NCBI GenBank assembly: GCA_016205965.1
Contig: JACQSM010000077.1
Location: forward strand, 1 to 17,352
DNA: 17,352 bases
Direction: 5' to 3'
From: Candidatus Uhrbacteria bacterium
Lineage (GTDB): Bacteria > Patescibacteriota > Patescibacteriia > SG8-24
Shown here: positions 2,941-17,282 of the stretch, piece by piece
Layout: the number at the start of each line of letters is the position of its first letter
How positions within the stretch are numbered: position 1 is the stretch's first letter
Made by a program: the position numbers and the translations under genes
Notes under the pieces: model-generated
Told to the model about the DNA's origin: nothing
The model's database searches: none
Seen by the model: only the letters and a program-made list of their open reading frames with translations

Positions 2941-4932
2941 TCAGCTCCTCTGGCTGCCGGTGTTGTTGCCGTCGGCATGACCGGCCTTGGACGGCGTGTC
3001 CGTGCTAGGCGCGGGCTCGGTGACCGCCAGGTCTTCCGACGCGCCGGCCAGCTTCCCGGTCGCCGCGTCGGCAAGGCCGGAAAGCTTGCCGCCGATGCCC
3101 TTGAGCATGGCCAAGGCATCCACGCCCGCGCCGGCGAACATGCCGTCGAGGAACTTGGACCCGGACATGCCGCTGGTGAAGGCGCTGGTGATCTTCTCCA
3201 CGTCCTGTGAAGAACCGACCACCTCGACGTTGACCTTGCCCAACAGCGTCGCCTGGGCGTTGGCCATGGCGATCCGGACCTCGGCCTCCTTGGTGATCTG
3301 GAGCTTGGCCAGATCGAACTGCTGCGCCGCCTGGCCGAAATCCTGCCGAGCCTGGAGCTCGGGCTTGAGAACCTCGTCCACGTTCCGCTTGGCGATGTCG
3401 ACCTCCCTGGCCTTCACATCCACCGGAATCATGGCCGAGTTCTTCTGCACCTCGACCTTGGCCCGCTCCACGTCCACGGCGACCATCTGCGCCGCCTTGT
3501 CGCCTTCGGCCTGCTGCTTCTTGGCGCTGGCATCGGCTTCGGCCCGCTTGGTGATGGCCGTGGCCTCGGCTTCGGCCGCCAACTTCCGCGCTTCGGCGTC
3601 CTTCTGCGTCGCATAGGCGCTGGCGTCGGCCGTGCGCGAGGTCGACAGGTAGGCCTGCTCGGCCTTGGCCTTGGCCTCGATCACCTGCTTGGCCGCGGCA
3701 CGCTCGGCTTCGGCCGTCACCTGCACGGTGTGCACGGCTTGCCGCTGCTTCTCGCGGGCGGCTTCGGCCTCGGCCAGATCGGCTTCGGCCGTGGCTCGCG
3801 CCTTCTCGGCTTCGGCCACTGCCTGCTGCTTCTGACGCTCGGCGACTTCCACCGACTGCACGGCGGCGACCACCGCCTTCTCCCTCTCGCGCTGGGCGAC
3901 CTCGACGGCCTGCAGCTTCTGCTGCTCGGCCACCTCCACCGCCTGCTGCTGGGCGCGCAGGGCGGTCTCGACCGCCTTCTGCCTGCCGACGCCGGCGAGC
4001 TCGACCGCCTGTTGCGTCGTGATCTGGGCCTCCTTGGTGGCCTGATCCTGCTGCGCCTGGACCTTGGCGATCTCCGCCTTCTGGGCGGCCTCCGCCTGGG
4101 CCTGGGTCTGCTCCAGCTTCAGGACCGCCTGCTTGGCCTCCACGTTGAGCTTGGTCCTGGCCATCTCGCCCTGCCGCTCCAGCTGCGTCCGCTGGGTCTG
4201 CTGGGCCTGAGTGATCTCGGCGATGGTTCGCTTGCCCTGGGCGTCGAAGATGTTGTCGTCGCGCAGGTTCTTGGGATCCGTCTGGTCCAACTTTGAGATG
4301 GTCACCGTCTCGAGCGCCAATCCGTTGGGCGCCAAGTCCTTGGCGACGATGTCGATCACCGCCTTGAGGAACGTGTCCCTCTCGGAGTTGAGCTGCTCGA
4401 GCGTCCTGGTGGCCGCCACCGTGCGCAACGCCGAGATCAGCTTGTCCTGAAACTTCTCGGTGATGACGTGGGTGAACGACATGTTGGGCTTGATCTCGTC
4501 GCCGAACGAACGGGCGGCGTTCTTGATGTCGTCGTCCGTCGGCTTCACGTTGACGAAGAACTCGGCCGTGATGTCGGCGCGGAGCTTGTCATGGGTGATG
4601 AGCGAATCCGCTCCGACGCGGTTCACCACCAGACGGGTGGTGCTCAACGGCACGACGATCATCTGGTGGACCACCGGGATGACCAGCGCGCCGCCGTTGT
4701 TGATGACCTTGCTGCCGCCGGCGCCCGTACGGACGAAAGCCTCGGAGGCCTTGGTCTTGACGTACAGCTTGGTGACGGTCAGCACGGAGACGGAGAACAG
4801 GCACAAGACGATGCCGAACACCATCATGACCGTGGTGGCGAAGGCGCCGAGTGACGCGCCAGCGACGCTGGCGGCAACCGGCCCGAAGATCAGGGCCAAC
4901 GAAAACACGAACAACAGGATGATTCCGCTCAT
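2941..4932 (-). CDS. yqiK: Flotillin family protein (SPFH/band 7 domain, YqiK/FloT-like).
   Basis: 663 aa. N-terminal TM segments, then an SPFH domain (VINNGGALVIPVVHQMIVVPL...), then a very long Ala/Glu/Gln/Lys-rich 'flotillin' coiled-coil with degenerate AVEVAE repeats. AGGAG RBS 4 nt upstream of the ATG at 4932. The immediately upstream gene is an NfeD/YqiJ-like partner, the canonical pairing. Confidence 0.85.
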   Translation of the reverse strand: MSGIILLFVFSLALIFGPVAASVAGASLGAFATTVMMVFGIVLCLFSVSVLTVTKLYVKTKASEAFVRTGAGGSKVINNGGALVIPVVHQMIVVPLSTTRLVVNRVGADSLITHDKLRADITAEFFVNVKPTDDDIKNAARSFGDEIKPNMSFTHVITEKFQDKLISALRTVAATRTLEQLNSERDTFLKAVIDIVAKDLAPNGLALETVTISKLDQTDPKNLRDDNIFDAQGKRTIAEITQAQQTQRTQLERQGEMARTKLNVEAKQAVLKLEQTQAQAEAAQKAEIAKVQAQQDQATKEAQITTQQAVELAGVGRQKAVETALRAQQQAVEVAEQQKLQAVEVAQREREKAVVAAVQSVEVAERQKQQAVAEAEKARATAEADLAEAEAAREKQRQAVHTVQVTAEAERAAAKQVIEAKAKAEQAYLSTSRTADASAYATQKDAEARKLAAEAEATAITKRAEADASAKKQQAEGDKAAQMVAVDVERAKVEVQKNSAMIPVDVKAREVDIAKRNVDEVLKPELQARQDFGQAAQQFDLAKLQITKEAEVRIAMANAQATLLGKVNVEVVGSSQDVEKITSAFTSGMSGSKFLDGMFAGAGVDALAMLKGIGGKLSGLADAATGKLAGASEDLAVTEPAPSTDTPSKAGHADGNNTGSQRS

Positions 4933-5033
4933 GACTTGCTCCTTTTTTGGCGGCGCTGCGGCCGCACTGGTTTACCGCATTTCTTGCCTACCGCTTCCCC
5001 GCACCTGCGACTTGCACTTCACCGCACCGGCTT

Positions 5034-5720
5034 CTAGGCCTTCTCCTCCAAGTCCGGCGGGAGCCGTTCGACCACGTAGACGTCGTCGGTCTGATCGTAG
5101 TCGATCACGAGCACCGGCGCGTTCTTTTGCAATTCCTCGCCGTTGGTGCGGCAGGAAGCGTTGATGACGTTGCCCCCGCGGTCGTGCACCTGCATCAGGC
5201 CATGGGCCTTGCCGGCCGGCAGAATCAACTCGCCGGTCGACGTGATGAGATCGCGTTTGGTGAGCACGTAAGTCTCGGTTGCCGGCATGATCTTGCTCAT
5301 GAATCCGGCGAAACGGCCGGTGAGCGCGACCATGCCGACGAAGGCGATGGGCAGCGACACCAGGCCATAGAGCCATCCCGGCAGAAACTGCGACAGGAAG
5401 CTGTTGGCAATGAAGCCGATGCCGCCGAACGTGAGGGCGGCGGTGCTCAACACCAGGCTCATCGGCGCCCGGCCGATGCCGAGAATCGAGAGAGCCTTGC
5501 TGACGCTGCCGTGGCCGTCGTGGTGAATCTCGTGGCCGTCGAGTGCGTGCTGGGACGCATGATCCGACTCCGCGTCCGCGTCGGTATCGGCGTCCATGTC
5601 GGCGTCGCCGTCAGCGTCCGCGTTGGCGTCGCCGAATCCGAAAATGGACCCGGCGGCGAGCAACACTCCGCCGACAAGAGGGATGAGGAAGACGAGCGTC
5701 TGCCATGCGAAGAGGTCCAT
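5034..5720 (-). CDS. yqiJ: NfeD/YqiJ-like inner-membrane protein (DUF1449-type; C-terminal OB-fold), flotillin partner.
   Basis: 228 aa, starting at MDLFAWQ with AGGAGGGG 3 nt upstream. The ORF extends to 5774 but has no RBS there. Several TM helices. C-terminal 'TGELILPAGKAHGLMQVHDRGGNV...VLVIDYDQTDDVYVVERL' resembles the NfeD short beta-barrel. It carries an unusual acidic D/A-repeat and His-rich insert (GDANADADGDADMDADTDADAESDH...HEIHHDGHG). Confidence 0.6.
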   Translation of the reverse strand: MDLFAWQTLVFLIPLVGGVLLAAGSIFGFGDANADADGDADMDADTDADAESDHASQHALDGHEIHHDGHGSVSKALSILGIGRAPMSLVLSTAALTFGGIGFIANSFLSQFLPGWLYGLVSLPIAFVGMVALTGRFAGFMSKIMPATETYVLTKRDLITSTGELILPAGKAHGLMQVHDRGGNVINASCRTNGEELQKNAPVLVIDYDQTDDVYVVERLPPDLEEKA

Positions 5721-5848
5721 GGACCCCTCCTTTCGTTTGCCGCGTTCCGGCAGTGCCGGGGCGGCTGTTGTCAACGATCCGCTGCTCGAACCGGCGGCTC
5801 GAACAGATGATTGTGCTTACCACGTTTAAGCGGAGACGTCAAGCCTGG

Positions 5849-5877: not shown

Positions 5878-5910
5878 CCCATCGCTCGCTCATTGATAAA
5901 GGAGGCGGCG

Positions 5911-6959
<1,049 letters not shown>

Positions 6960-6963
<4 letters not shown>

Positions 6964-7820
6964 AATCGCGAATCGTGAACGCCGCCGTCATTCAATGCGC
7001 GCTGGGCGGCAGCCGGGATGACAACGCCCGCAAAGTGAAACAGCTCATCGATCAGGCGGCGCGAGCCGGAGCCAACGTCGTGGTCGCGCCGGAACTCTTC
7101 GAGACGCCGTACTTCTGCAGGACCAGGAGCCGCCGGCATTTCCAAGAGGCCACGACGCTAGATCGCAACCCGCTGATCGCCGACATGCGCCTGATCGCCC
7201 GCAGAAACAGCCTGGTGATCCCGTTCTCGTTCTTCGAGGACGGCGGTGACGGCCGCTATTTCAATACCGTCGCCATGATCGACGCCGACGGCCGCGGTCT
7301 CGGAACCTACCGCAAGAGCCACATTCCGACCGGACCCGGCTACTGGGAACGCCGCTACTTCGAACCAGGCGATACCGGCTTCAAAGTCTGGCGGACCAAG
7401 CACGGAAAGATCGGCGTCGGCATCTGCTGGGACCAGTGGTTTCCCGAATGCGCCCGCGCCATGGCCTTGGACGGAGCCGACCTGCTGTTGTATCCGTCGA
7501 CGATCGGCGCCGAGCCGCACCGACCGGATCTCGACACCCGCGACCGCTGGCGCCGCGTCATGATCGGCCATGCGGTCGCCAACGTCATCCCGATCGCCGC
7601 CGCCAACCGCACCGGCGTCGAGGACGGCATCGCCTACTACGGCTCGTCGTTCGTCTGCGATGACGCCGGCGAAATCGTCGCCGACATGGGCAGAGTGGCC
7701 CAAGGCTTCGCCATGGCCCAGATCGACATCAACGCCGTCCGGCGCAACCGCCGCGATTGGGGCCTGACCGGCTACCACCGCCGCCCCGACCTCTACGGCG
7801 CCCTCGTCAAAAAAGACTGA
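6960..7820 (+). CDS. aguB: N-carbamoylputrescine amidohydrolase (nitrilase/CN-hydrolase superfamily).
   Basis: 286 aa. CN-hydrolase catalytic triad context (VVAPELFETPYF ... YRKSHIP ... GVGICWDQWFPE). Translationally coupled to aguA through an ATGA overlap. Together the two genes convert agmatine to putrescine. Confidence 0.85.
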
Positions 7821-7882: not shown

Positions 7883-9031
7883 TCAGTTCGAACTCCGCTC
7901 GGCCGACTTTTTAGAATAGGCGACGGCGGCCATCCAGGTCGAGATCGGCACCGCCAGAATCAGGCCGCAGCTGCCGACCATGGTCCGAATGAATTCTTCG
8001 GCGATGGGCTCGCCGTTGAGCATGACCCACAGCGGCTGCGTCTGATTGTTGTGAAACACCAGGAAAAGCGGCAACGAAGCGCCGGCATACACGAGCGCCA
8101 GCGTGTTGACCAGCGAAGCGATGTGTTCGCGGCCGACAGAAAGCCCGCGCTTGTACAGCTCGCGATGCGACAGGGTCGGATCGGCGTTGTGAATCTCCTC
8201 GACCGCGGCGACTTGGGCGGTGGTGACGTCGTCGAGCACGCCGAGGGTGCTGATGATGATGCCGGCGAGCAGCAAGCCGCGCAGGTCGATGTTCGAAATC
8301 GGGCTGTATTGCAGATAGAACGCGGCATCGCTGCCGGCGCCGAACAGCCTGGCCATCCGAACGAACGCCGTCGCCAAAACGCCGGACGCGATCAGCGACA
8401 TGACCGTGGCCGCGACGGCCACCGTCGTCCTCTTCCCCGGGCCATGCGACATGAACATCGACAGCGCGATGATGAGCATGGAACCGGCGATGGCGGTCAT
8501 CAAAGGATCATAGCCGGCGGCGATCTGCGGCATGACGACCGTCGCCAAAATCAGGATGCTCAACATCAAGCCGACGAACGAGGCGAATCCGCGGCGGCGC
8601 CCCAAGGCGACGGCCAGCAGGAAGAAAAATCCGAGCACCGCCAGCATGGCCGGCATGCGGTAGTGGTCGGCGACGTAGTACCGAACGCCGGGATCCTCGC
8701 TGACGACGGCCAGAACCAATGTCTCGCCGACCTCGGCCCGCCGGAATGCGCCGGAGTCGTCGCTGTTTTCGATGTCGACCTCCCGGCCGCCGTCATCGCC
8801 TTCGAGCAGCCGACCGCGCAGCTCTTGCGTCTGCACTTTGACGCCGCCGGCGTCGCGCTCGCTCTCGTTGACGATCTGCGTCACCTTGGCGCGGACGAAT
8901 CGCGGAGCGATCACGTCGGAGATGTTGACTTCGGCCGGCGCCGTTCCGGCTTGTGCCAGCGTCGGCGCCGCCAAAGACAGCCCGTAAAATACGAGCGCGG
9001 CCGCCAAAAATATGGATATTCGCTTGGACAT
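7883..9031 (-). CDS. Polytopic membrane protein, putatively YibE/F family.
   Basis: 382 aa, starting at MSKRISIFLAAALVFYGLSLAAP (signal/TM). A ~120-aa extracytoplasmic segment is followed by 6-7 TM helices, consistent with the YibE/F layout. The longer TTG-initiated ORF to 9103 runs through the upstream terminator hairpin and is rejected. No clear RBS at 9031. Confidence 0.4.
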   Translation of the reverse strand: MSKRISIFLAAALVFYGLSLAAPTLAQAGTAPAEVNISDVIAPRFVRAKVTQIVNESERDAGGVKVQTQELRGRLLEGDDGGREVDIENSDDSGAFRRAEVGETLVLAVVSEDPGVRYYVADHYRMPAMLAVLGFFFLLAVALGRRRGFASFVGLMLSILILATVVMPQIAAGYDPLMTAIAGSMLIIALSMFMSHGPGKRTTVAVAATVMSLIASGVLATAFVRMARLFGAGSDAAFYLQYSPISNIDLRGLLLAGIIISTLGVLDDVTTAQVAAVEEIHNADPTLSHRELYKRGLSVGREHIASLVNTLALVYAGASLPLFLVFHNNQTQPLWVMLNGEPIAEEFIRTMVGSCGLILAVPISTWMAAVAYSKKSAERSSN

Positions 9032-9071
9032 GGAATCAGTGTAGGCAATTCCAGGCGAATGCGCCACTGAC

Positions 9072-9099
9072 AAAAAAAGGAACGGAATGAATCCGTTCC
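9072..9099 (-). terminator. Rho-independent terminator after the vWA gene.
   Basis: On the minus strand after the TGA at 9126-9128: GGAACGGA-UUCAU-UCCGUUCC (8-bp perfect stem, 5-nt loop), followed by UUUUUUU. Confidence 0.7.
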
Positions 9100-9125
9100 A
9101 CAAAACGACGACCCGCCGCGTCAGG

Positions 9126-11174
9126 TCACGAGCAGGCGAACTGCTCCCGCCAGGTCACGCGCTTGAGCGAAGCGCCCTGGAACGCGGCATTCTGCTCCAG
9201 CTTGGGATACGTCCCGCGCTGGGTGCCCTTGCCGGCGTCCCAGGCGATGGCCTTGGAGCCGGTGACCTCCATGGCGAAGATGATGGCCCGCTTGAGATAG
9301 CGGACGGTAATCAAGCGCTGACGCACCTGCTTGACCCTGGTCCCGGCCTGCGCGTGGCTCATCTTGGCCGCGGCCTCGGCGTAGCTGCCGGCCTTGTACT
9401 TCATCAACCGGTACTCCACGCACCCGGCCTCGTACGTCTCCACCGGCACGCCCTGAACCTTCTCGGCCCGGCCGTGGTGGAACTCGTCCTCCTCGCCGTC
9501 ATCCTCGCCGGACGGAACCGTTGCCCCGATGCGGGCGTTGAGCGCCGTCTGCTCGGCCTTGAGCTCGGCCTCTTCCTGCATCAGCTTGACGAGTCCGAGC
9601 GTGGCCGGATTGCTCCAGTTGCCCGAGATCATCTTGATGTTGCGCAGGTTGAGGGTGTAGCACTTGCCGGGCACGTGCTTCTCGACGGCGCCGATCACCC
9701 CGGCCGACTGCAGATCCGCGAAGCTCTTGTCGGTCAGGACCGCCTCGAGCTCGGGCGTGTGCAGATTGCCGTCCAGGATGATGTTGAAGGTCCGATGCAG
9801 CTTCTTGTCTTCGGCCGGGCCGCCGTTCTCGGGCAGCACCTTGGCGTCGACCACGCACTGGACCGAGAAGTTGAAACGCGCCTTGTGGCTGCGGTAGCCG
9901 ACCACTCTCATGGTCTTGCCCAGCGGCGACGGGATGATGCGCGGGTCGCGGGTCATCTCGCCCGAGCGCTTGTAGGCGCCCTTGCCGAGGTAGACCACGT
10001 TGCCCTCGTCTTCCATCAGCGCCCGCAGGACGTTGAGCACGTTATGGTTCGGCCCCTTGGGCTTCAAGCCTTCGCCGATGTGCTTGCGGTCCCGGAACAT
10101 GCGCCGGAACTCGTCGGCCGTCTCGCGCTTCTCGCGCGGCGTGTACGACGAACCCGCCTTCTCGGCCAGGCCGTCGGCGCCGGCATTGATGAGGATCTCC
10201 ACGGCCCCGGCGCTGTCCCCGGTGATATACAGATAGGCCGCCTTGGCGATGGCGTAGCTCTTGGCCGACTCCGGCGTCAATGCCGTTGCCTTGACCGTCT
10301 GTTCCACCTTCTGGCCGTTCATCCGTCCGCGGATGGTGAACTCGTCGCATTCCTGGGTCAGCTCCACGAACAGCGTGGTCTTGCCCTGGTATGCGCCGCG
10401 GGTCCGGACGTGACCACCATCGCCGATGCTGGTCAACTCGGGCGTGGTCTTGAAGACCCTCCCCGCCGGGCCCTTGGCCGGCACGATCGCAAGGTCGAAG
10501 TTGACCGGGCGCGTGTCGCGGAAGACTTCGTCGGCGCTGACGATGGCCGGTCCGAAGTCCTCGATGTCGGAGATGTGGCGGTAGATGCCGGTGTAGCCGG
10601 CCGCCTCGGTCAGCGTCTCCATGAAATCCTGGTTGTAGTGGACGCCGTAGCCGATGACGGAAACGGAAGCGCCGGCCTCATCGAGCGCGCGAACCACGCT
10701 GAACGCCTTCTGCTCCTCCGCGTCCACGCTCCACCGGCTCGGCATGGCGCAGCCATCGGTGAACAGCACCGCATGGTGCAGCATGTCCTTGCGCGCCAGC
10801 CGCTCGACGGTCTGAAGCGTCAGCACGAGCGGCTCCGAGAAGACGGTGGTGTCCATGACGCGAACCTCCTTCTCGACGGCCTGCTTCAGCAGCTCGCGAC
10901 CGGCATGGTTGCACTGCGTCGGGCCGGCGATGAGCTTGGCCCGGTCATGGCCCGAGAAGACGATCACCGACGCGAAGTCGTTGTCGCCCAGCTCGGACAG
11001 GTACTTCTGGCTGTCGCTCTTGAGGTCGTTGATGTTCCCGCCCATCGAGACGGAACAGTCCTCGATCAGAATGGTGTGGCGGAATTCCGGCGTGGCGACG
11101 TCGCCCACATCCAGATCCACCATGACCACGTGCCGAAAACCCTTGATCAAACCTGACTGTGCGTAAATTTTCAA
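9126..11174 (-). CDS. Large von Willebrand factor A (vWA) domain protein with complete MIDAS motif; C-terminal ~450 aa of unknown fold.
   Basis: Contains RHTILIEDCSVSMGG (the DxSxS MIDAS motif), VIVFSGHD and LFTDGCA, a typical vWA beta-sheet order. Preferred start is TTG at 11174 with AAGGAG 6 nt upstream. The alternative ATG at 11237 (703 aa) lies ~9 nt from a predicted TSS and has no RBS. The gene is flanked by its own promoter-like element and terminator. Confidence 0.75.
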   Translation of the reverse strand: MKIYAQSGLIKGFRHVVMVDLDVGDVATPEFRHTILIEDCSVSMGGNINDLKSDSQKYLSELGDNDFASVIVFSGHDRAKLIAGPTQCNHAGRELLKQAVEKEVRVMDTTVFSEPLVLTLQTVERLARKDMLHHAVLFTDGCAMPSRWSVDAEEQKAFSVVRALDEAGASVSVIGYGVHYNQDFMETLTEAAGYTGIYRHISDIEDFGPAIVSADEVFRDTRPVNFDLAIVPAKGPAGRVFKTTPELTSIGDGGHVRTRGAYQGKTTLFVELTQECDEFTIRGRMNGQKVEQTVKATALTPESAKSYAIAKAAYLYITGDSAGAVEILINAGADGLAEKAGSSYTPREKRETADEFRRMFRDRKHIGEGLKPKGPNHNVLNVLRALMEDEGNVVYLGKGAYKRSGEMTRDPRIIPSPLGKTMRVVGYRSHKARFNFSVQCVVDAKVLPENGGPAEDKKLHRTFNIILDGNLHTPELEAVLTDKSFADLQSAGVIGAVEKHVPGKCYTLNLRNIKMISGNWSNPATLGLVKLMQEEAELKAEQTALNARIGATVPSGEDDGEEDEFHHGRAEKVQGVPVETYEAGCVEYRLMKYKAGSYAEAAAKMSHAQAGTRVKQVRQRLITVRYLKRAIIFAMEVTGSKAIAWDAGKGTQRGTYPKLEQNAAFQGASLKRVTWREQFACS

Positions 11175-11252
11175 AGTCCTGCTCCTTGGTGGGGCGGATT
11201 CGCCAGGAACCCGCGCGTTCGTTTGCCCCGAGGTCATCCCGAGACATGGCGG

Positions 11253-11281
11253 TTTGTAGCAAAAAAATAACGGTTCGTCAA
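11253..11281 (-). promoter_or_regulatory. Candidate promoter for the vWA gene: TTGACG -35 (11281-11276), 17-nt spacer, TACAAA -10 (11258-11253).
   Basis: Minus-strand sequence TTGACGaaccgttatttttttgcTACAAA lies between the Ubl terminator and the vWA gene. The predicted TSS is ~11246. Confidence 0.35.
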
Positions 11282-11289
11282 GGTCCTGT

Positions 11290-11317
11290 AATTAAAAAAC
11301 CGCCGCTCATGCGACGG
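11290..11317 (-). terminator. Intrinsic terminator (or attenuator) after the Ubl gene.
   Basis: Minus-strand RNA CCGUCGC-AUGA-GCGGCGG (7-bp stem including one G-U pair), followed by UUUUUUAAUU. Starts ~28 nt after the Ubl TGA. Confidence 0.5.
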
Positions 11318-11344
11318 TTCGTAGCGCGTCTGCCGCCCTCGGGA

Positions 11345-11599
11345 TCACGAGCCCTGGGGGCGCTCCTCCACCTTGACAGAGACGACATTGGCCAATGCCC
11401 TGTCGCCCGGACCGACGAAGGTGTCGAGCGTGGCCGGCTTGTCGTTGACGTACAGGTCCTTGTTCTTGGCCGAGACGCCGGCCTCCTTGAGCACCTCGCC
11501 CAGCTTGGCGCCGCTCTTGTTGACTTCCACCTGCTGGACCTTGGGCTTGCCCTGCTCACCGTTGACCTTCAACTCAACCTTGAACTTTCCCGCAGCCAT
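11345..11599 (-). CDS. Small beta-grasp ubiquitin-like protein (ThiS/MoaD-like) with non-canonical C-terminus (…VKVEERPQGS).
   Basis: 84 aa, starting at MAAGKFKVELKVNGE with AAGGAGG 5 nt upstream. The alternating beta/alpha pattern and 'LYVNDKPATLDTFVGPGDRALANVVSV' resemble the ThiS/MoaD 'VNGE...L.DGDEV.I.PPVSGG' region. It ends in Gly-Ser after an 8-residue tail rather than Gly-Gly. Lies 37 nt downstream of the E1-like gene. Confidence 0.55.
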   Translation of the reverse strand: MAAGKFKVELKVNGEQGKPKVQQVEVNKSGAKLGEVLKEAGVSAKNKDLYVNDKPATLDTFVGPGDRALANVVSVKVEERPQGS

Positions 11600-11636
11600 G
11601 GCTGCCTCCTTGTTCTGGGCCCGACATTGGGCCATT

Positions 11637-12317
11637 TCAATCCTCGACCGGGGTTTCCACTTCGTCCGCCGCCTCTTCAGCGTCGAAATCCCTGGCCAGA
11701 AACCGCTTGTGTGGCCTCATCCTGCCACCGGACCACTGAACTGTCAACTGTTTGACGACCCAGTTGGCCGCGTCGACGGCGACGAACACGATGCTGTGCT
11801 GGCCGCAATGCTGCATATTGGCCTCGCTCGACGGATACAGAAAGTGCTCGTAGTAGGCCTTATTCTGGACGTCGCATGGCTTGAGCGCGAAGATGGACAA
11901 GAACTCGACCGTGATCCGGGTGTCGATGAAGGCGTCGACCAACCCGTTGTCCTTCACCTGGTCCCAGATCAGCTTGCGCGCCTCCATGGAGTCGACGCAG
12001 GCGATGACCGTTCCCTTGAGTGGCTCGCCGGCGTACATCCGCTGGATGACCTTGAGGTTCACGCCGCTCTTGGCTCGGACCAGGCGCTCCAAGGCCGTGA
12101 CCTTGAACATGCCGATGTCGTCCTGACCGTAAGCCGAGGGCGCGATGTTGTGCGACTCAATGCCGTCTTCGTCGTAGACTGTGATGTCGTTGACGCCGAG
12201 TTTGGCCAGGATGTCCACGACCCAGCTGCCGACCGAACCGGCGCCGATGACGGTCACCGGCGAGGCGTTCAGCGGGTTGAAGATCTTGGACTGCTGCGAC
12301 AAGTTGAGCGCGTTCAT
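11637..12317 (-). CDS. E1-like enzyme of the ThiF/MoeB/HesA superfamily (ubiquitin-activating-like Rossmann fold), minimal form.
   Basis: 226 aa, starting at MNALNLSQQ with GGAGG 7 nt upstream. It has the nucleotide-binding loop VTVIGAGSVGSWVVDILAKLGV, the acidic DITVYDEDGIE segment and the D-x4-R motif (CVDSMEARK). Candidate catalytic Cys residues at KPCD and QHCG. There is no CxxC...CxxC zinc motif and a divergent HNIAPS replaces the usual NLxRQ. The ATG overlaps the stop of the upstream E2-like gene (ATGA). Confidence 0.8.
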   Translation of the reverse strand: MNALNLSQQSKIFNPLNASPVTVIGAGSVGSWVVDILAKLGVNDITVYDEDGIESHNIAPSAYGQDDIGMFKVTALERLVRAKSGVNLKVIQRMYAGEPLKGTVIACVDSMEARKLIWDQVKDNGLVDAFIDTRITVEFLSIFALKPCDVQNKAYYEHFLYPSSEANMQHCGQHSIVFVAVDAANWVVKQLTVQWSGGRMRPHKRFLARDFDAEEAADEVETPVED

Positions 12318-13801
12318 GGAAAAACCTCCGGGGCGACCGGCGCGTTGCCGGTTGGGCCGTCGTTGTTGGGTACGGCGGTTTCGCGGCTTTCCGCCGGCGT
12401 CGGGAGCGACTCCGGCGGCCAAGTCTCGATCTTCACCCGCGCGATCGCCGGCGTGTAGCCGTACTCGAGCCAGCGCAGCACGTGCAGGACGGCATCGGCG
12501 TAACGATGCTCGCCGGCCGCTTGGGTGATGACGTCGGTGACGTTGCCGAAGCAGGGCGTGCCGTCATCGTTGATGTGCGGATGCGACTCGTTCTTCGGGT
12601 GCGTCGGCGACTCGTTCCAGAGGCTGACGCGGCCATGCTGATTGATCCGGATGACGAACTCGCCGACCGGATAGCGCCGGCCGGCATGCTCGATCACGAT
12701 CTGCTTGGTGCCGACGTGCAAACCGTCCTGGACCAGCTCCACCGACGCGACTAGTGGATGGGAGATCAAACGGCGCGTGTCTTCTGGCACGCGCGACAAC
12801 TCCCTTTCAATGAAACCGGAGGTCGTGAGGGTATCGCGGAACATCTCGTACTCGCGTCTGACGCGATACATCACGGCCAGCTGCTGGCGATAGACGTCGA
12901 TTTCGGCATCACACCGCGCAATCTCCTCGGCGATATGTTTGGCTTTTGGGTCGAGCCATTTCTGCGCCATCTGCTTGAGCGCGCCGCGCCGGATGCGGGC
13001 CGGTTTCTTCTTGGCTGGCTTGGCCCGAAGACCTTCCCAGGCCAGCTTCACCATCGATTCGAACACTTGTTGTTGGCGGCCGAGGTCCTTGTCGCTGATG
13101 ACCGGAATCAAGAAGTAGACATTGGAGCCGACGATCTGCACCAACGGCCCCTTGTCGTCTTCGAGCACCGTCCCGCGTCCAGCCGACGGCCCATGACCAA
13201 TGCGGCGATCCAAGCCGTTCTTGAGGTCGATACCGAAGGCGGAGTCGATGTATCTCGTGGCACCGTCGCCCGGCGGACGGCTGTTGGTGTAGATGTGGAT
13301 CTCTCCATCCTTGTCCGGCTGCGGCGCTTTCGGCAGGCCGCCATTGGCATGATAGTAGACGTGCAGGCCGCTCAAACAGGCCAGACGTCGAAGATAGGCG
13401 AAGACCAGCGCATAGGTGGCCGCGTATTCCTCGCGTTCCTTGGCTTCGAGCTTGTCCATGTCCACGACCGTGAGCATTTCTCTCCTCAACGGATAATGGA
13501 GGTCGAGGAAACGGTGGCCCATGATACAGGACGTAGTTTGCCATTCTTCTTTGGCGTCGGAACCGGCGAGACTCTTGGCAAGCGCCACGACCAAGTCATA
13601 CTTCTGCTTCCCGGTCGAAAGCAGGCAGACGTCGATGTCGAGTCCGTCGAAGTTTACCGTCTTGAAGCGCGGTTTGAGGCCGGCCTTTGCGAAGGCCTCA
13701 TCCTTGCCTCGCACCAGCCATGCCGGAAGGCAGAAGAGGTTTCTGGAGTTCTTCGGGGCCGGAGTCTCGGATTCGGTTTCCTTCTTCTCCGCGGGATCCA
13801 T
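12314..13801 (-). CDS. 495-aa fusion protein: uncharacterised N-terminal ~330-aa region plus a C-terminal E2/UBC-like ubiquitin-conjugating domain.
   Basis: C-terminal 'YPVGEFVIRINQHGRVSLWNESPTHPKNESHPHINDDGTPCFGNVTDV...ADAVLHVLRWLEYGY' fits the UBC pattern (strand pair, HPN/HPH loop, G-x-x-C catalytic Cys, following helix). AGGAGG RBS 5 nt upstream of the ATG at 13801. The stop overlaps the E1-like start. Antisense ORF 12758..14071 is rejected. Confidence 0.65.
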   Translation of the reverse strand: MDPAEKKETESETPAPKNSRNLFCLPAWLVRGKDEAFAKAGLKPRFKTVNFDGLDIDVCLLSTGKQKYDLVVALAKSLAGSDAKEEWQTTSCIMGHRFLDLHYPLRREMLTVVDMDKLEAKEREEYAATYALVFAYLRRLACLSGLHVYYHANGGLPKAPQPDKDGEIHIYTNSRPPGDGATRYIDSAFGIDLKNGLDRRIGHGPSAGRGTVLEDDKGPLVQIVGSNVYFLIPVISDKDLGRQQQVFESMVKLAWEGLRAKPAKKKPARIRRGALKQMAQKWLDPKAKHIAEEIARCDAEIDVYRQQLAVMYRVRREYEMFRDTLTTSGFIERELSRVPEDTRRLISHPLVASVELVQDGLHVGTKQIVIEHAGRRYPVGEFVIRINQHGRVSLWNESPTHPKNESHPHINDDGTPCFGNVTDVITQAAGEHRYADAVLHVLRWLEYGYTPAIARVKIETWPPESLPTPAESRETAVPNNDGPTGNAPVAPEVFP

Positions 13802-13922: not shown

Positions 13923-14495
13923 CTAATCGCACGAACACGGACCCCAATGATGGATGTCGTGGTGTTTGCACGGACAGGATGCGTGACTGCGCCAGAAAGC
14001 CGGGCAGCCGGCATTCGCCTTTTCTTCGCCTAAAAACTCGCCTTCGGGCGGCAGACGAAAATCAGCAGTGAGCTTTTCCGGCAATACCTTATACAGGGTT
14101 CGGTCGTCCTCAAGCGTCAGCGGCCTTCCTTTCATATCCCGATGCGCGGCGATCGCTTTCATGAGCCGATCGAGTTCGAGCCGCAAAGATTCTTCGGACA
14201 TCACCTCGAGATCATCGTCCCATTTTTGAGAATCGGCCTGTGCATCGGCAGGAATCGGATCCGCCGCATCGGCCCGGCGATGCGTGAAAAAATCGCGACA
14301 TCGCGCCATCATCTCGTCATGCGGCGGCAGAGCCGTCGGCTTGGGCGGCGTATCCTCGAGCAGCGCCCAAAGCTTATAATCGTCCAGCCAGCAGCGATCA
14401 TCGCCCTTTTGGTCGCGATGATAACGGATGCTCTGCCGAAATTTTTTGATCGCCGCGGAGAGTTTCCCGCGAGTCATGTTTTGATCGAAGATCAT
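13923..14495 (-). CDS. Hypothetical protein with Cys/His-rich C-terminal cluster (CPAFWRSHASCPCKHHDIHHWGPCSCD), possible metal-binding (treble-clef-like) module.
   Basis: 190-aa ORF 9 nt downstream of the HAD gene stop and 120 nt upstream of the E2-like gene on the same strand. Sense-like codon usage in a lower-GC stretch. No RBS at either candidate ATG (14495 or 14477). No recognisable family. Confidence 0.4.
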   Translation of the reverse strand: MIFDQNMTRGKLSAAIKKFRQSIRYHRDQKGDDRCWLDDYKLWALLEDTPPKPTALPPHDEMMARCRDFFTHRRADAADPIPADAQADSQKWDDDLEVMSEESLRLELDRLMKAIAAHRDMKGRPLTLEDDRTLYKVLPEKLTADFRLPPEGEFLGEEKANAGCPAFWRSHASCPCKHHDIHHWGPCSCD

Positions 14496-15204: not shown

Positions 15205-15519
15205 ATGACGAAGAAAACAACGGCGAAGGTTTCAAAGAAGTTGCGGAAAATCTACGGCGACGCCAAAAAAGAGGGCATCTGGATCCGCGAATACAAGGGC
15301 GGTACCGGTTATCTGGCGGCCGCCGGCTACATGAAGGTCATCGAGGCCTGGGAAAAGAAGCTAAGCCGCAAGATCGACATCGAAAAACTCGAACTCGGCG
15401 ATGTGGTCGCCGTCGCCGCTCCAGGAACCGGCAAGACCAGGGAAGAGGCCTGCGAAAATGCCGTCACGAACCTAAAAAAAAGCGAGAAACCTCGCAGAGC
15501 TTCCAAGCCGCGTCGCTGA
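15205..15519 (+). CDS. Small lysine-rich basic protein (104 aa), function unknown (possible nucleic-acid-binding/regulatory protein).
   Basis: Strong AGGAGGAG RBS 6 nt upstream of the ATG. Clear third-position G/C bias. Occupies an otherwise empty intergenic segment, divergent from the HAD gene and convergent with the 349-aa gene. No family recognised. Confidence 0.5.
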   Translation: MTKKTTAKVSKKLRKIYGDAKKEGIWIREYKGGTGYLAAAGYMKVIEAWEKKLSRKIDIEKLELGDVVAVAAPGTGKTREEACENAVTNLKKSEKPRRASKPRR

Positions 15520-15584
15520 CCGCGGCTTTTTCATTCGATGGATTAAAAAACTCCGCGGGATTTCCACGGAGCCGGTGAAGGCGC

Positions 15585-16634
15585 TTACCAGATCTCGTTT
15601 GCGGCCGGACGGACGGTGACGCGAGCCCCCGGCGATGCCGACTTGATCTTCTCAACGTGCGCCGGATCGTCGCAGACCATGAACAAACTGCCGAAGCTTG
15701 ATGTGCCGAAGCCGTCGCTCATCTCGCCGCGAGTCACCTCGACCTCTTTGGTGACCGGCTTGCCGCAGCCATCCACATGGCAGGTGTGCGTGACTCGGCC
15801 GCGAATGTAGGCCCGCGTCTGTTCCATGAAGGTCGTCGGCCAAACGGTGTCCGTCGTCTCGACGAAGACGTTGTTGAGCTTGAGCCGCTGCGGCTGATCG
15901 GCCGAGGCCAAAACAACGATCCTCTTTCCGCCATCCTCGAAGTCCTTATTCCAGCCGCCACCGTAGTAAACTCCGCTCTTCAGCAGCAATGGATCGAACT
16001 TGAACTCGACGTAGTGCTTGCCGGTCGCCCGATCCCGCCAATGATAGGCATGATCGACGATCCTCGAGATCGGCACATCGCTCTCGTTGGCGTAAGCCGC
16101 GGGCGCGGTCGCCAGCCCCAGCCGTTTGGCCAGTTGCAGCGCGACCTCGGCTGCCTCCGGACTGAAGACGGAGATCGTGAGCGCATGACCGCTCAACCGC
16201 GCCGCCGACAGGAAACGATGGCGCTGGAAAGATCCGTTCGATGAAGACCATCCCGATTGCCATGATCCTTGGAGAGTCTTGGGCGCGGCTTCGGTCAGGA
16301 TCAGATGAGCCTCGCCGTGCGACTTCGTGGCCGGATCGAGGATCACGCCCGGAATACGAAACTCCTCGACCAGAGCGCCAATCATGGCTCTGATTTCATC
16401 GAAAGAAATCTGATCGGTTTTCCGGTATGGCGTGGTGAAGGTGACATCGATGCCGAACGCGCTCCTGACGGCCAACTCACCGAAACTCAAGCCGCGATTT
16501 TCAATCTCATCTTCCAGCCGGCGGCGATCGTCTCTGTCGAGCCTCATGAGATAGGAATAGACATCTTTGCCGGAGAATGAGCCCGTGGGCAGCTTCGCTT
16601 CCATCTTGAACAAACGGCCAATCGATCCGAACAT
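15585..16634 (-). CDS. Hypothetical protein (349 aa) with C-terminal Cys/His cluster (HTCHVDGCG...CDDPAH).
   Basis: Starts at MFGSIGRLF with GGAGG 5 nt upstream. Sense-like codon usage. No family recognised by eye. The cluster is a possible zinc-ribbon-like module. Confidence 0.5.
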   Translation of the reverse strand: MFGSIGRLFKMEAKLPTGSFSGKDVYSYLMRLDRDDRRRLEDEIENRGLSFGELAVRSAFGIDVTFTTPYRKTDQISFDEIRAMIGALVEEFRIPGVILDPATKSHGEAHLILTEAAPKTLQGSWQSGWSSSNGSFQRHRFLSAARLSGHALTISVFSPEAAEVALQLAKRLGLATAPAAYANESDVPISRIVDHAYHWRDRATGKHYVEFKFDPLLLKSGVYYGGGWNKDFEDGGKRIVVLASADQPQRLKLNNVFVETTDTVWPTTFMEQTRAYIRGRVTHTCHVDGCGKPVTKEVEVTRGEMSDGFGTSSFGSLFMVCDDPAHVEKIKSASPGARVTVRPAANEIW

Positions 16635-16716
16635 CTTTGCCTCCGTCGGCGCGCGTAGCACGCTTGGATTTCAAACGAGCTTGCGGCGATGAGAATATCA
16701 GGAGTCCGGCGCGCGG

Positions 16717-17244
16717 TCAACGGGCCGAAACCAAATCCACGTTCGATCCTTCGATGACCTGGCCGAGGAACGGCAGCAGCGCGCGCTGATAATTTTGAAA
16801 CTCGAGCCGATCTTCTTCGACAATCTCCTCCTTCTGCAGTTCGACTTCAAAAATCTGACCGACATCTTTCACGGTATCGAGATGAAAAACGGCATCGCCC
16901 TTCCGCCAAACCTCCCGGGTCTTTTCGACGATGGCGCGGGTACCGAGGCATTGCTCGAGAAACGGCAATAGCATATCGTCGCCGACCGAATACAGTTTAA
17001 CCAGCGCCGGCGTCACCGCGCCGCTCACGAACGACGGTCGTTCATAATAGACGAGCGTCTTCTGTGCGTTTTCGATCCGAAGTTTCAGACGCGGCTGCTG
17101 GCCGCCATTCTCCGCCGGCAGAAAGAAAAAATAATCTTTCTGATTCTTGACGATCTCCTTATGCGCGCCAATCTGCTCCAAAACTTCGCGCACCTTAGCG
17201 AAATCCTGGCAAAAATGTTTCAGCTCGAGGTTGATCTTGTTCAT
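16717..17244 (-). CDS. CYTH-domain protein (CyaB-like class IV adenylyl cyclase / triphosphatase family).
   Basis: 175 aa from MNKINLELKHF. This N-terminal ExExK-type motif is characteristic of CYTH/CyaB, and size (~175-180 aa) fits. The alternative GTG start at 17262 adds 6 residues. No RBS at the ATG. Confidence 0.6.
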   Translation of the reverse strand: MNKINLELKHFCQDFAKVREVLEQIGAHKEIVKNQKDYFFFLPAENGGQQPRLKLRIENAQKTLVYYERPSFVSGAVTPALVKLYSVGDDMLLPFLEQCLGTRAIVEKTREVWRKGDAVFHLDTVKDVGQIFEVELQKEEIVEEDRLEFQNYQRALLPFLGQVIEGSNVDLVSAR

Positions 17245-17282
17245 AGAACGAAATTGTAGCACGTGGGACGCGATGCGGCTCT

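Follow-up and report, generated by a model that had tools for sequence, protein, structure and literature searches.

A MIDAS-containing vWA protein beside a ubiquitin-like cassette in an Uhrbacteria contig: an ArnB-type module joined to an undescribed C-terminal module

In a contig of Candidatus Uhrbacteria, a gene for a protein with a von Willebrand factor A (vWA) domain and a MIDAS, or metal-ion-dependent adhesion site, follows a ubiquitin-like (Ubl) cassette, and its position raises the question of whether the two belong together. The window analysed here is that complete contig (JACQSM010000077.1, 17,352 bp). The original prediction, made from the sequence alone, had proposed that the vWA protein could be the substrate, a sensor or an effector of the cassette. 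Comparison of loci on both sides speaks against this link, and the protein itself is an ArnB-type vWA module joined to an undescribed module, its vWA half being of known build and its C-terminal half new to the libraries searched.

The vWA gene and the neighbouring Ubl cassette

The elements of the cassette and of the vWA transcription unit are, in the order of reading:

12314-13801, minus strand: 495-aa gene of the cassette; its stop overlaps the ThiF ATG (ATGA)
11637-12317, minus strand: ThiF-type E1-like gene of the cassette
11345-11599, minus strand: small (Ubl) gene of the cassette, product ~88 aa
11291..11320, minus strand: terminator-like hairpin (11320-11297) and T6 run after the upstream Ubl gene, from a pattern scan; kept in locus L044
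11253..11281, minus strand: putative promoter-like element, TTGACG (11281-11276), 17 nt, TACAAA (11258-11253), read from the sequence
11182..11187, minus strand: Shine-Dalgarno sequence AAGGAG, 7 nt 5' of the TTG; similar boxes stand at the same distance in relatives
9126..11174, minus strand: vWA coding sequence, 682 aa, TTG start, stop codon 9126-9128; placed from the open reading frame (ORF), the NCBI call, homologue starts, TTG-AAA and Shine-Dalgarno boxes in relatives, and model confidence
9072..9099, minus strand: terminator-like hairpin (9099-9079) and T7 run after the vWA gene, from a pattern scan; fold -24 kcal/mol, z = -3.5

Near its C-terminus the 495-aa protein bears an invariant HPH(I/V)x4-5PCFGN motif that recalls the HPN...Cys active site of E2 enzymes; sequence searches of Pfam and the PDB match nothing, so that the E2 reading is no more than a lead. 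In the small protein the conserved end is RPQGS, not GG. Homologues of the 495-aa protein are few, and the ThiF gene comes next in every locus that extends far enough, the ~88-aa gene in nearly all. As a unit, the three genes are kept in ~12 other loci (L011, L013, L035-L045), from Patescibacteria or metagenomes; L041 and L042 agree fully in coordinates and scores and are apparently a single locus that was assembled two times, with the small gene below the tblastn threshold there. The full set of 13 cassette sequences is too diverse in alignment to yield search patterns.

Standing side by side with the cassette on the same strand, and belonging to a family that, like the cassette, is found mainly in Patescibacteria, the vWA protein might be a dedicated substrate, sensor or effector, recruited through its MIDAS or conjugated; an ArnB-like architecture in WAV3-type E3 ligases (PMC12852372) also points this way, as a resemblance and not a test. 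We weighed this reading against gene order in relatives. On the vWA side, 18 distinct loci with full-length homologues (33-65% identity) and flanks of up to 10 kb were available, from Uhrbacteria, Saccharibacteria, Parcubacteria, unclassified metagenome-assembled genomes and one phage-like contig. Searched by tblastn with the ThiF, 495-aa and small proteins, none of the 18 contained a homologue of any of the three, and all-against-all clustering of their flanking ORFs gave no recurrent neighbour beyond the synteny of closely related genomes, where the vWA gene has carotenoid/glutaredoxin or photolyase genes on one side and cell-wall genes on the other. On the cassette side, a vWA homologue is adjacent in 0 of the ~12 loci; the genes 3' of the cassette vary there and include a minus-strand 204-aa gene, a TPR protein and a 270-aa protein, among others. 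In L044, with 88% identity in ThiF and 78% in the small protein the closest cassette relative, alignment with the window spans the Ubl stop codon and the conserved terminator (CACCGTCGCAT[G/A]AGCGGCGGTTTTTTAATT) and breaks down behind it, where another gene comes next (MTLAEYYENYAKK...). Synteny ends exactly at the Ubl terminator, the boundary of the vWA unit. Phage and stand-alone family members, too, occur without any E1/Ubl context. No conserved gene-neighbourhood linkage of the vWA gene with E1, E2 or Ubl genes emerges from these loci, so that a dedicated function within the cassette is, in our view, quite improbable. The original prediction had itself named a lack of adjacency in relatives as grounds for giving up the link, and the loci compared show just this. 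A variant in which the vWA protein was recruited in this lineage as a target or adaptor of the E2-like/E1/Ubl cassette is less likely than the new-fold reading of the C-terminal module given below. Left without the vWA gene, the cassette stands as a clean unit of three genes, and its target is to be sought elsewhere.

Two records deserve a separate remark. L018 and L019 are titled 'uncultured Gammaproteobacteria', and the gene order around the vWA gene in L019, with cell-wall, carotenoid, GltX, M23 and Dus genes, is shared with the Uhrbacteria contigs L001 and L004; the title probably reflects a mistake in binning or classification.

Separate transcription of the vWA gene had also been proposed. 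Its terminators hold up: hairpins with T-runs lie on both sides, the one behind the vWA gene being stronger than the one behind the Ubl gene. The promoter-like element remains putative: it fails a sigma-70 consensus scan of 8900-12600, which found 0 sites with a consensus that may not be that of candidate phyla radiation (CPR) bacteria. Plausibly, the vWA gene is transcribed separately, as a unit of one gene that has translation signals and a terminator of its own.

Reading frame, ArnB-type module and C-terminal module

The vWA ORF (minus strand, 9126..11237) would encode 703 aa from an ATG at 11237 or 682 aa from the TTG at 11174. We infer the TTG start from the N-termini of homologues, from the Shine-Dalgarno box and TTG kept in the closest relatives, and from the low predicted local distance difference test (pLDDT) scores of the extra residues. 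The ORF has 61 homologues at E < 1e-126, and in a 55-member alignment the start aligns with TTG 11174 (residue 22 of the long ORF; consensus 'MK-I-xAQSG') in ~50 of 54 homologues. A TTG occupies this position in the closest relatives as well (L010, L006, L008, L014); in the three closest of them AAA comes next, and a purine-rich box stands 5-8 nt 5' of the TTG. More distant relatives have an ATG or GTG one or two codons away. The 21 additional residues of the ATG-11237 form are not conserved and are predicted to be disordered (pLDDT 42-51), and the NCBI call on the same contig is the 682-aa form (P0001, 'VWA domain-containing protein', 100% identity). On the homologue starts, the Shine-Dalgarno boxes and TTG codons of the relatives, and the low pLDDT of the upstream residues, we rejected ATG 11237. 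The original prediction had left the choice between the two codons; its candidate TTG with an upstream AAGGAG is borne out by these lines, with a spacing of 7 nt (11187-11182) in place of the 6 nt given there. A 689-aa plus-strand ORF at 9087-11156 was set aside as a shadow ORF of a region of 64% GC, all homology evidence being on the minus strand.

The encoded protein divides into the following features. Residue numbers are those of the 703-aa form unless the 682-aa form is named, and the secondary structure is that of the predicted model.

11109..11171, minus strand: two N-terminal beta-strands (residues 23-30, 36-43) completing the beta-sandwich; DSSP on the model, pLDDT > 90, ArnB/vWA2 topology
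10515..11084, minus strand: vWA (Rossmann-like alpha/beta) domain, residues 52-241; PF00092, Foldseek matches 4fx5, 8s05 and 5a8j, profile match to 8s05_A
11046..11060, minus strand: MIDAS DxSxS (DCSVS; D60-C-S62-V-S64), from its invariance in the alignment
10845-10847, minus strand: MIDAS T131, from the alignment
10755-10757, minus strand: MIDAS D161 (the D of FTDG), from the alignment
10290..10514, minus strand: post-vWA beta-strands, residues 242-316, main part of the beta-sandwich (six or seven strands); model, and Foldseek, which aligns 4fx5 and ArnB over 416-433 columns
10101..10274, minus strand: four-helix bundle, residues 322-379 (322-338, 342-351, 355-362, 367-379); model, pLDDT ~90, matching the C-terminal bundle of ArnB/vWA2 (PMC6509490)
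9129..10085, minus strand: C-terminal module, residues 385-703 (~364-682 in the 682-aa form), basic, pI 9.3; a conserved autonomous evolutionary unit

The earlier call of a vWA domain with a complete MIDAS is well founded. Pfam VWA (PF00092) matches residues 59-228 at 25.7 bits, above the cut-off of 23.8, and Foldseek against the PDB returns vWA structures at E = 5e-17. All five MIDAS residues (D60, S62, S64, T131 and D161) are invariant across 55 aligned family sequences, and of the 48 distant fused members retrieved by the C-terminal profile alone, 47 keep DxSxS...T...D. This retention indicates that the fusion is old and the MIDAS under selection, and a complete MIDAS would imply metal-dependent binding of a ligand or protein. 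PF00092 was the only Pfam match; NCBIfam and PADLOC-DB v2 scans of the protein gave none (0 PADLOC families).

An AlphaFold model built on the 55-sequence alignment (pLDDT 89.9; predicted template modelling score, pTM, 0.87) extends the likeness well beyond the vWA domain. In the Foldseek ranking of PDB entries, 4FX5 (Catenulispora), 8S05 (ArnA-ArnB) and 5A8J (the ArnB paralogue vWA2) come first, followed by ITIH1 and Sec23/24, with PitA, SpaC, Mfa5 and integrins lower down; the family profile has one significant match among all PDB sequences, 8S05_A (E = 2.7e-4). In vWA2, ArnB and 4FX5, two N-terminal and six post-vWA strands form an eight-stranded sandwich, the MIDAS is intact and a four-helix bundle ends the module (PMC6509490), and Sec23/24, predicted YfbK and WAV3 ligases have been noted to share this arrangement (PMC12852372). 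Residues 23-379 of the model agree with the published vWA2/ArnB/4FX5 topology element by element (PMC6509490). The model thus shows residues 1-360 of the 682-aa form as a tripartite module of the ArnB/vWA2/Caci_2163 type, in the 'Sec23/24 core' arrangement. Behind the helix bundle, it predicts a poorly ordered linker and then a mixed alpha/beta region (400-703).

This architecture revises the earlier picture of a uniformly beta-rich C-terminus of ~450 aa. The region is composite, with the beta-sandwich and the four-helix bundle ahead of a mixed alpha/beta module of ~320 aa that is separate from them. Because of the topological agreement with vWA2/ArnB/4FX5, its first 160 residues fall within the known tripartite module, and the verdict that no motif could be recognised, while wrong for these, stands for the ~320 aa that follow.

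Two further readings of a vWA protein can be judged from the same data. As a partner of a MoxR/CobS/ChlI-type AAA+ ATPase, in the manner of the BatA, CobT or ChlD-like chaperone and chelatase accessories, the protein would fit a pairing of vWA and MoxR genes that is common in bacteria, and one JGI record names the family member P0060 'Mg-chelatase subunit ChlD'. However, no AAA+ gene lies beside the vWA gene in the window or in the 18 loci, NCBIfam models for CobT, ChlD and BatA do not match, there is no transmembrane segment as in BatA/BatB, and the nearest solved relatives are ArnB-type proteins and not chelatase subunits; we regard this reading as very unlikely. A secreted or surface adhesin of the pilus-tip or PilY1-like kind, serving host attachment of an episymbiotic CPR cell, would draw on the PitA, SpaC, Mfa5 and integrin matches and on the frequent episymbiosis of CPR bacteria. 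It is hardly credible for a protein with no signal peptide, transmembrane segment or sortase motif, whose best structural matches are cytoplasmic ArnB-type proteins and whose phage homologues are non-structural and cytoplasmic. With a maximum 19-residue Kyte-Doolittle average of 1.07, the vWA protein has neither a hydrophobic segment nor an N-terminus resembling a signal, and it is predicted to be cytoplasmic.

The C-terminal module is, as far as the libraries searched show, undescribed. It has no Pfam, NCBIfam or PHROG match of its own, PADLOC on the fragment is also empty, and no solved structure matching it was found; a well-known unrelated or housekeeping family, which the original prediction had considered for this region, did not appear. 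A structure search of BFVD returned family members only, a 361-aa protein of phage SP-15 (template modelling score, TM, 0.73) and a 751-aa phage protein (TM 0.64). By tblastn and alignment, SP15_285 of Bacillus phage SP-15 and LIS04_28 of Listeria phage LIS04 are stand-alone copies of the module with ~30% identity, sharing with the vWA-protein C-terminus the motifs IGxGLK..GPN, RFNFS, RxYNxIxDGxL and WxxP. Searched against 1.84 billion cluster representatives, the C-terminal profile found 256 proteins at E <= 1e-3 in two classes, fused (~660-775 aa) and stand-alone (~300-370 aa); among 86 members matching most of the profile, stand-alone forms number 68 against 16 fused ones. Some stand-alone forms, ~340 aa long and annotated as hypothetical only, come from Candidatus Magasanikbacteria. 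Pfam on 36 stand-alone members gave scattered matches, with E no lower than 0.004 and each limited to one or two members. In alignment the stand-alone members are too diverse to yield search patterns.

Across the 86 diverse members, the best-conserved residues of the module are N456, R482, G490, Y527, W541, P544 and R650, and the conserved residues include no Asp/Glu/His/Cys cluster. On this pattern of Asn, Arg, Gly, Tyr, Trp and Pro, we infer that binding is a likelier function for the module than metal-dependent catalysis. In charge, the basic C-terminal part contrasts with the acidic vWA part (pI 4.9).

A split-off vWA half near the stand-alone copies was considered and rejected: for SP15_282 and SP15_286 by SP15_285, and for the 319-aa protein upstream of a Magasanikbacteria copy, hhalign probabilities were at most 0.2%, and no vWA gene adjoins the stand-alone module in L031. 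That 319-aa protein carries a metzincin-like HEFGHxxGxxH motif. In the Candidatus Magasanikbacteria marine contigs L031-L033, two paralogous stand-alone copies (at 4813-5844 and 7256-8227 in L031) flank a gene for a CNNM/CBS-domain, Mg2+/Co2+ transporter-like protein.

Phage relatives and the proposed role

Where else does this protein occur? It belongs to phrog_2426 (hmmscan E = 2.4e-24, residues 47-431), and hhalign with the member from Rhizobium phage RHph_TM39 covers residues 18-600 of the query (probability 99.9%, E = 4e-37). The family is rare and, as far as sampled, confined to CPR/Patescibacteria and large virulent phages. PLSDB plasmids gave no tblastn match to the vWA protein, no relatives turned up in IMG/VR when it was scanned with the C-terminal alignment of CPR type, and a literature search on phage MIDAS/vWA proteins found nothing on the family. 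In phages, family members sit in non-structural early regions: beside Mre11/Rad50-like genes, an HNH gene and gyrase; beside DnaE, RadC and UDG; beside a 5'-3' exonuclease, PolA and DnaB; or beside a thymidylate-synthase-family gene. A PhoH-family ATPase gene lies 2-4 genes from the family member in SP-15 (L027 8746-9627), LIS04 (L028 8572-9528) and BpSp (L048 1849-3255), three Bacillus/Listeria phages of two genera (Thornevirus, Takahashivirus); this proximity may be a coincidental clustering of early genes. SP-15 DNA carries hypermodified thymine, and a role in hypermodified DNA, a lead that rested also on one stand-alone copy 3' of a thymidylate-synthase-family gene, was dropped, as the SP-15 genome paper is silent on SP15_285 and nothing else supports it.

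Taken together, we consider it reasonably probable that the vWA protein is a soluble cytoplasmic, autonomous, MIDAS-dependent adaptor that acts apart from the E1/Ubl cassette. By analogy, its MIDAS site would hold Mg2+ and capture a partner's side chain, either acidic (Asp/Glu) or phosphorylated. In integrin I-domains and midasin, the MIDAS cation is completed by an acidic residue of the partner. The same kind of ligand capture has been proposed for ArnB (PMC6509490). We envision that the vWA module would then recruit or regulate the C-terminal module, coupling partner recognition to its action. The partner process could be DNA or nucleotide metabolism, which is the weak step of this scheme; a process related to nucleic acids or nucleotides is suggested by the non-structural phage contexts and the basic charge of the C-terminal module, and we put it forward only tentatively.

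Several points weigh against this adaptor reading or parts of it. Several cassette loci extend only 1-2 kb past the Ubl gene, and the independence of vWA gene and cassette rests on comparisons of adjacency. The chromosomal neighbours in CPR bacteria (carotenoid, cell-wall, guanylate kinase and peptidase genes) are uninformative on DNA metabolism, and non-structural regions of phages are rich in DNA-metabolism genes anyway, so the association may be trivial. The type of partner known for ArnB, an FHA/zinc-finger protein and Ser/Thr kinases, is not found in the window.

The phage copies also permit a reading in which the conflict between phage and host is the setting: a phage-derived gene serving as a single-gene anti-phage defence of CPR bacteria, or as phage counter-defence or host takeover, with the vWA domain as sensor and the C-terminal module as effector. 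A single-gene unit with its own signals, shared by large virulent phages and bacteria, patchy in distribution with variable neighbours and placed in phages among early, non-structural genes, would suit such a role. Yet no PADLOC model matches the vWA protein, the C-terminal module shows no recognisable toxin or nuclease residues, and in several Uhrbacteria-type genomes the gene occupies a stable site between housekeeping genes, not a defence island; we judge a conflict gene unlikely. Slightly less doubtful, though still well short of the adaptor reading, is that the C-terminal module is a new fold with an activity of its own, which phages use alone or under MIDAS vWA control and of which CPR bacteria kept both forms. 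Its use in phages would then lie in DNA replication, repair, nucleotide metabolism or host takeover, alone in SP-15 and LIS04 and fused in the Rhizobium phages and BpSp, and the proteins would form a functional family, common to phages and CPR bacteria, that had escaped recognition.

As it stands, the vWA protein is one of many conserved unknowns, in a family with a well predicted structure that is functionally blank and occurs both in large virulent phages and in CPR bacteria. A defined activity of the C-terminal module, should it have one, would provide an annotation for phrog_2426, explain what these proteins do in the early regions of phages and make this a rare case of a gene family that joins CPR bacteria with phages.

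Genomic surroundings and comparison with known systems

The left half of the window holds ordinary chromosomal genes: glycoside-hydrolase-like, SPFH/flotillin and YqiJ/NfeD-like, agmatine deiminase, N-carbamoylputrescine amidase and YibE/F membrane protein genes. The right half, all on the minus strand, runs through CYTH, 358-aa, HAD hydrolase, 190-aa, 495-aa and ThiF-type E1-like genes and the gene for the small protein (~84-96 aa) to the vWA gene. No Rfam families or tRNAs were found in the window. At 5893-7820 (+), the genes for agmatine deiminase (PAD_porph, E = 5e-111) and N-carbamoylputrescine amidase (CN_hydrolase), which have a 4-nt overlap, make the agmatine-to-putrescine pathway complete in this CPR contig. 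At 2941-5774 (-), a 663-aa SPFH/flotillin with a long Ala/Gln/Glu-rich coiled coil adjoins the YqiJ/NfeD-like membrane protein, and AT skew is strongly negative (-0.29 to -0.44) across this interval.

Upstream of the cassette, the 190-aa protein (13923-14495, minus strand) has no family match and ends in a Cys/His-rich tail, CPAFWRSHASCPCKHHDIHHWGPCSCD, with the look of a metal-binding cluster. The CYTH, 358-aa and 104-aa (+) genes (15205-17262) are syntenic with the closest cassette relative (L012/L034) at 75-84% identity. The HAD and 190-aa genes are missing there and an IS1595-family transposase occupies that interval, which marks this flank of the cassette as variable. GC falls to ~0.56 over 13.5-16 kb of the window.

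Among the closest known systems are the phrog_2426 proteins of ~750 aa from Rhizobium phages (RHph_TM39 EVB32_229, RL2RES_179) and gp143 of Bacillus phage BpSp, which show near-full-length homology with the same MIDAS and the same order of modules; the C-terminal module of the 751-aa member superposes at TM 0.64. They are ~24% identical and, with insertions, 50-70 residues longer than the vWA protein, and their genes lie in the early/DNA-metabolism regions of virulent phages, whereas the vWA gene of the window lies in a bacterial chromosome. Like the vWA protein, phrog_2426 is annotated as of unknown function. SP15_285, LIS04_28 and the ~340-aa Magasanikbacteria proteins correspond to the C-terminal module only (~30-34% identity over ~365-682; BFVD TM 0.73); they lack the half with vWA domain, beta-sandwich and helix bundle, and no vWA gene adjoins them where tested.

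Structurally, the closest comparison is with ArnB and ArnE (vWA2) of Sulfolobus acidocaldarius (8S05, 5A8J) and Caci_2163 of Catenulispora acidiphila (4FX5), which are cytoplasmic, as is predicted for the vWA protein. The model shares with them the beta-sandwich, the vWA domain with intact MIDAS and the four-helix bundle (Foldseek E = 5e-17 to 8e-13 over 404-433 columns) at only 13-16% sequence identity. The helix bundle is the last element of ArnB (~380 aa), while the vWA protein adds its ~320-aa module. In archaellum regulation the partners of ArnB are ArnA, an FHA/zinc-finger protein, and the kinases ArnC/D; FHA, zinc-ribbon and kinase genes are absent from the window and do not recur beside homologues in the 18 loci, and no archaellum or motility context lies near the vWA gene. 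Given the low identity, the lack of an ArnA/kinase/phosphatase context and the extra module, we do not regard the vWA protein as an ArnB orthologue. The arrangement reaches as far as the Sec23/Sec24 subunits of the COPII inner coat, in which a vWA-like trunk, a beta-sandwich and a helical domain follow in the same order (Foldseek E ~1e-9 to 1e-10), a resemblance that has been described for ArnB itself (PMC12852372).

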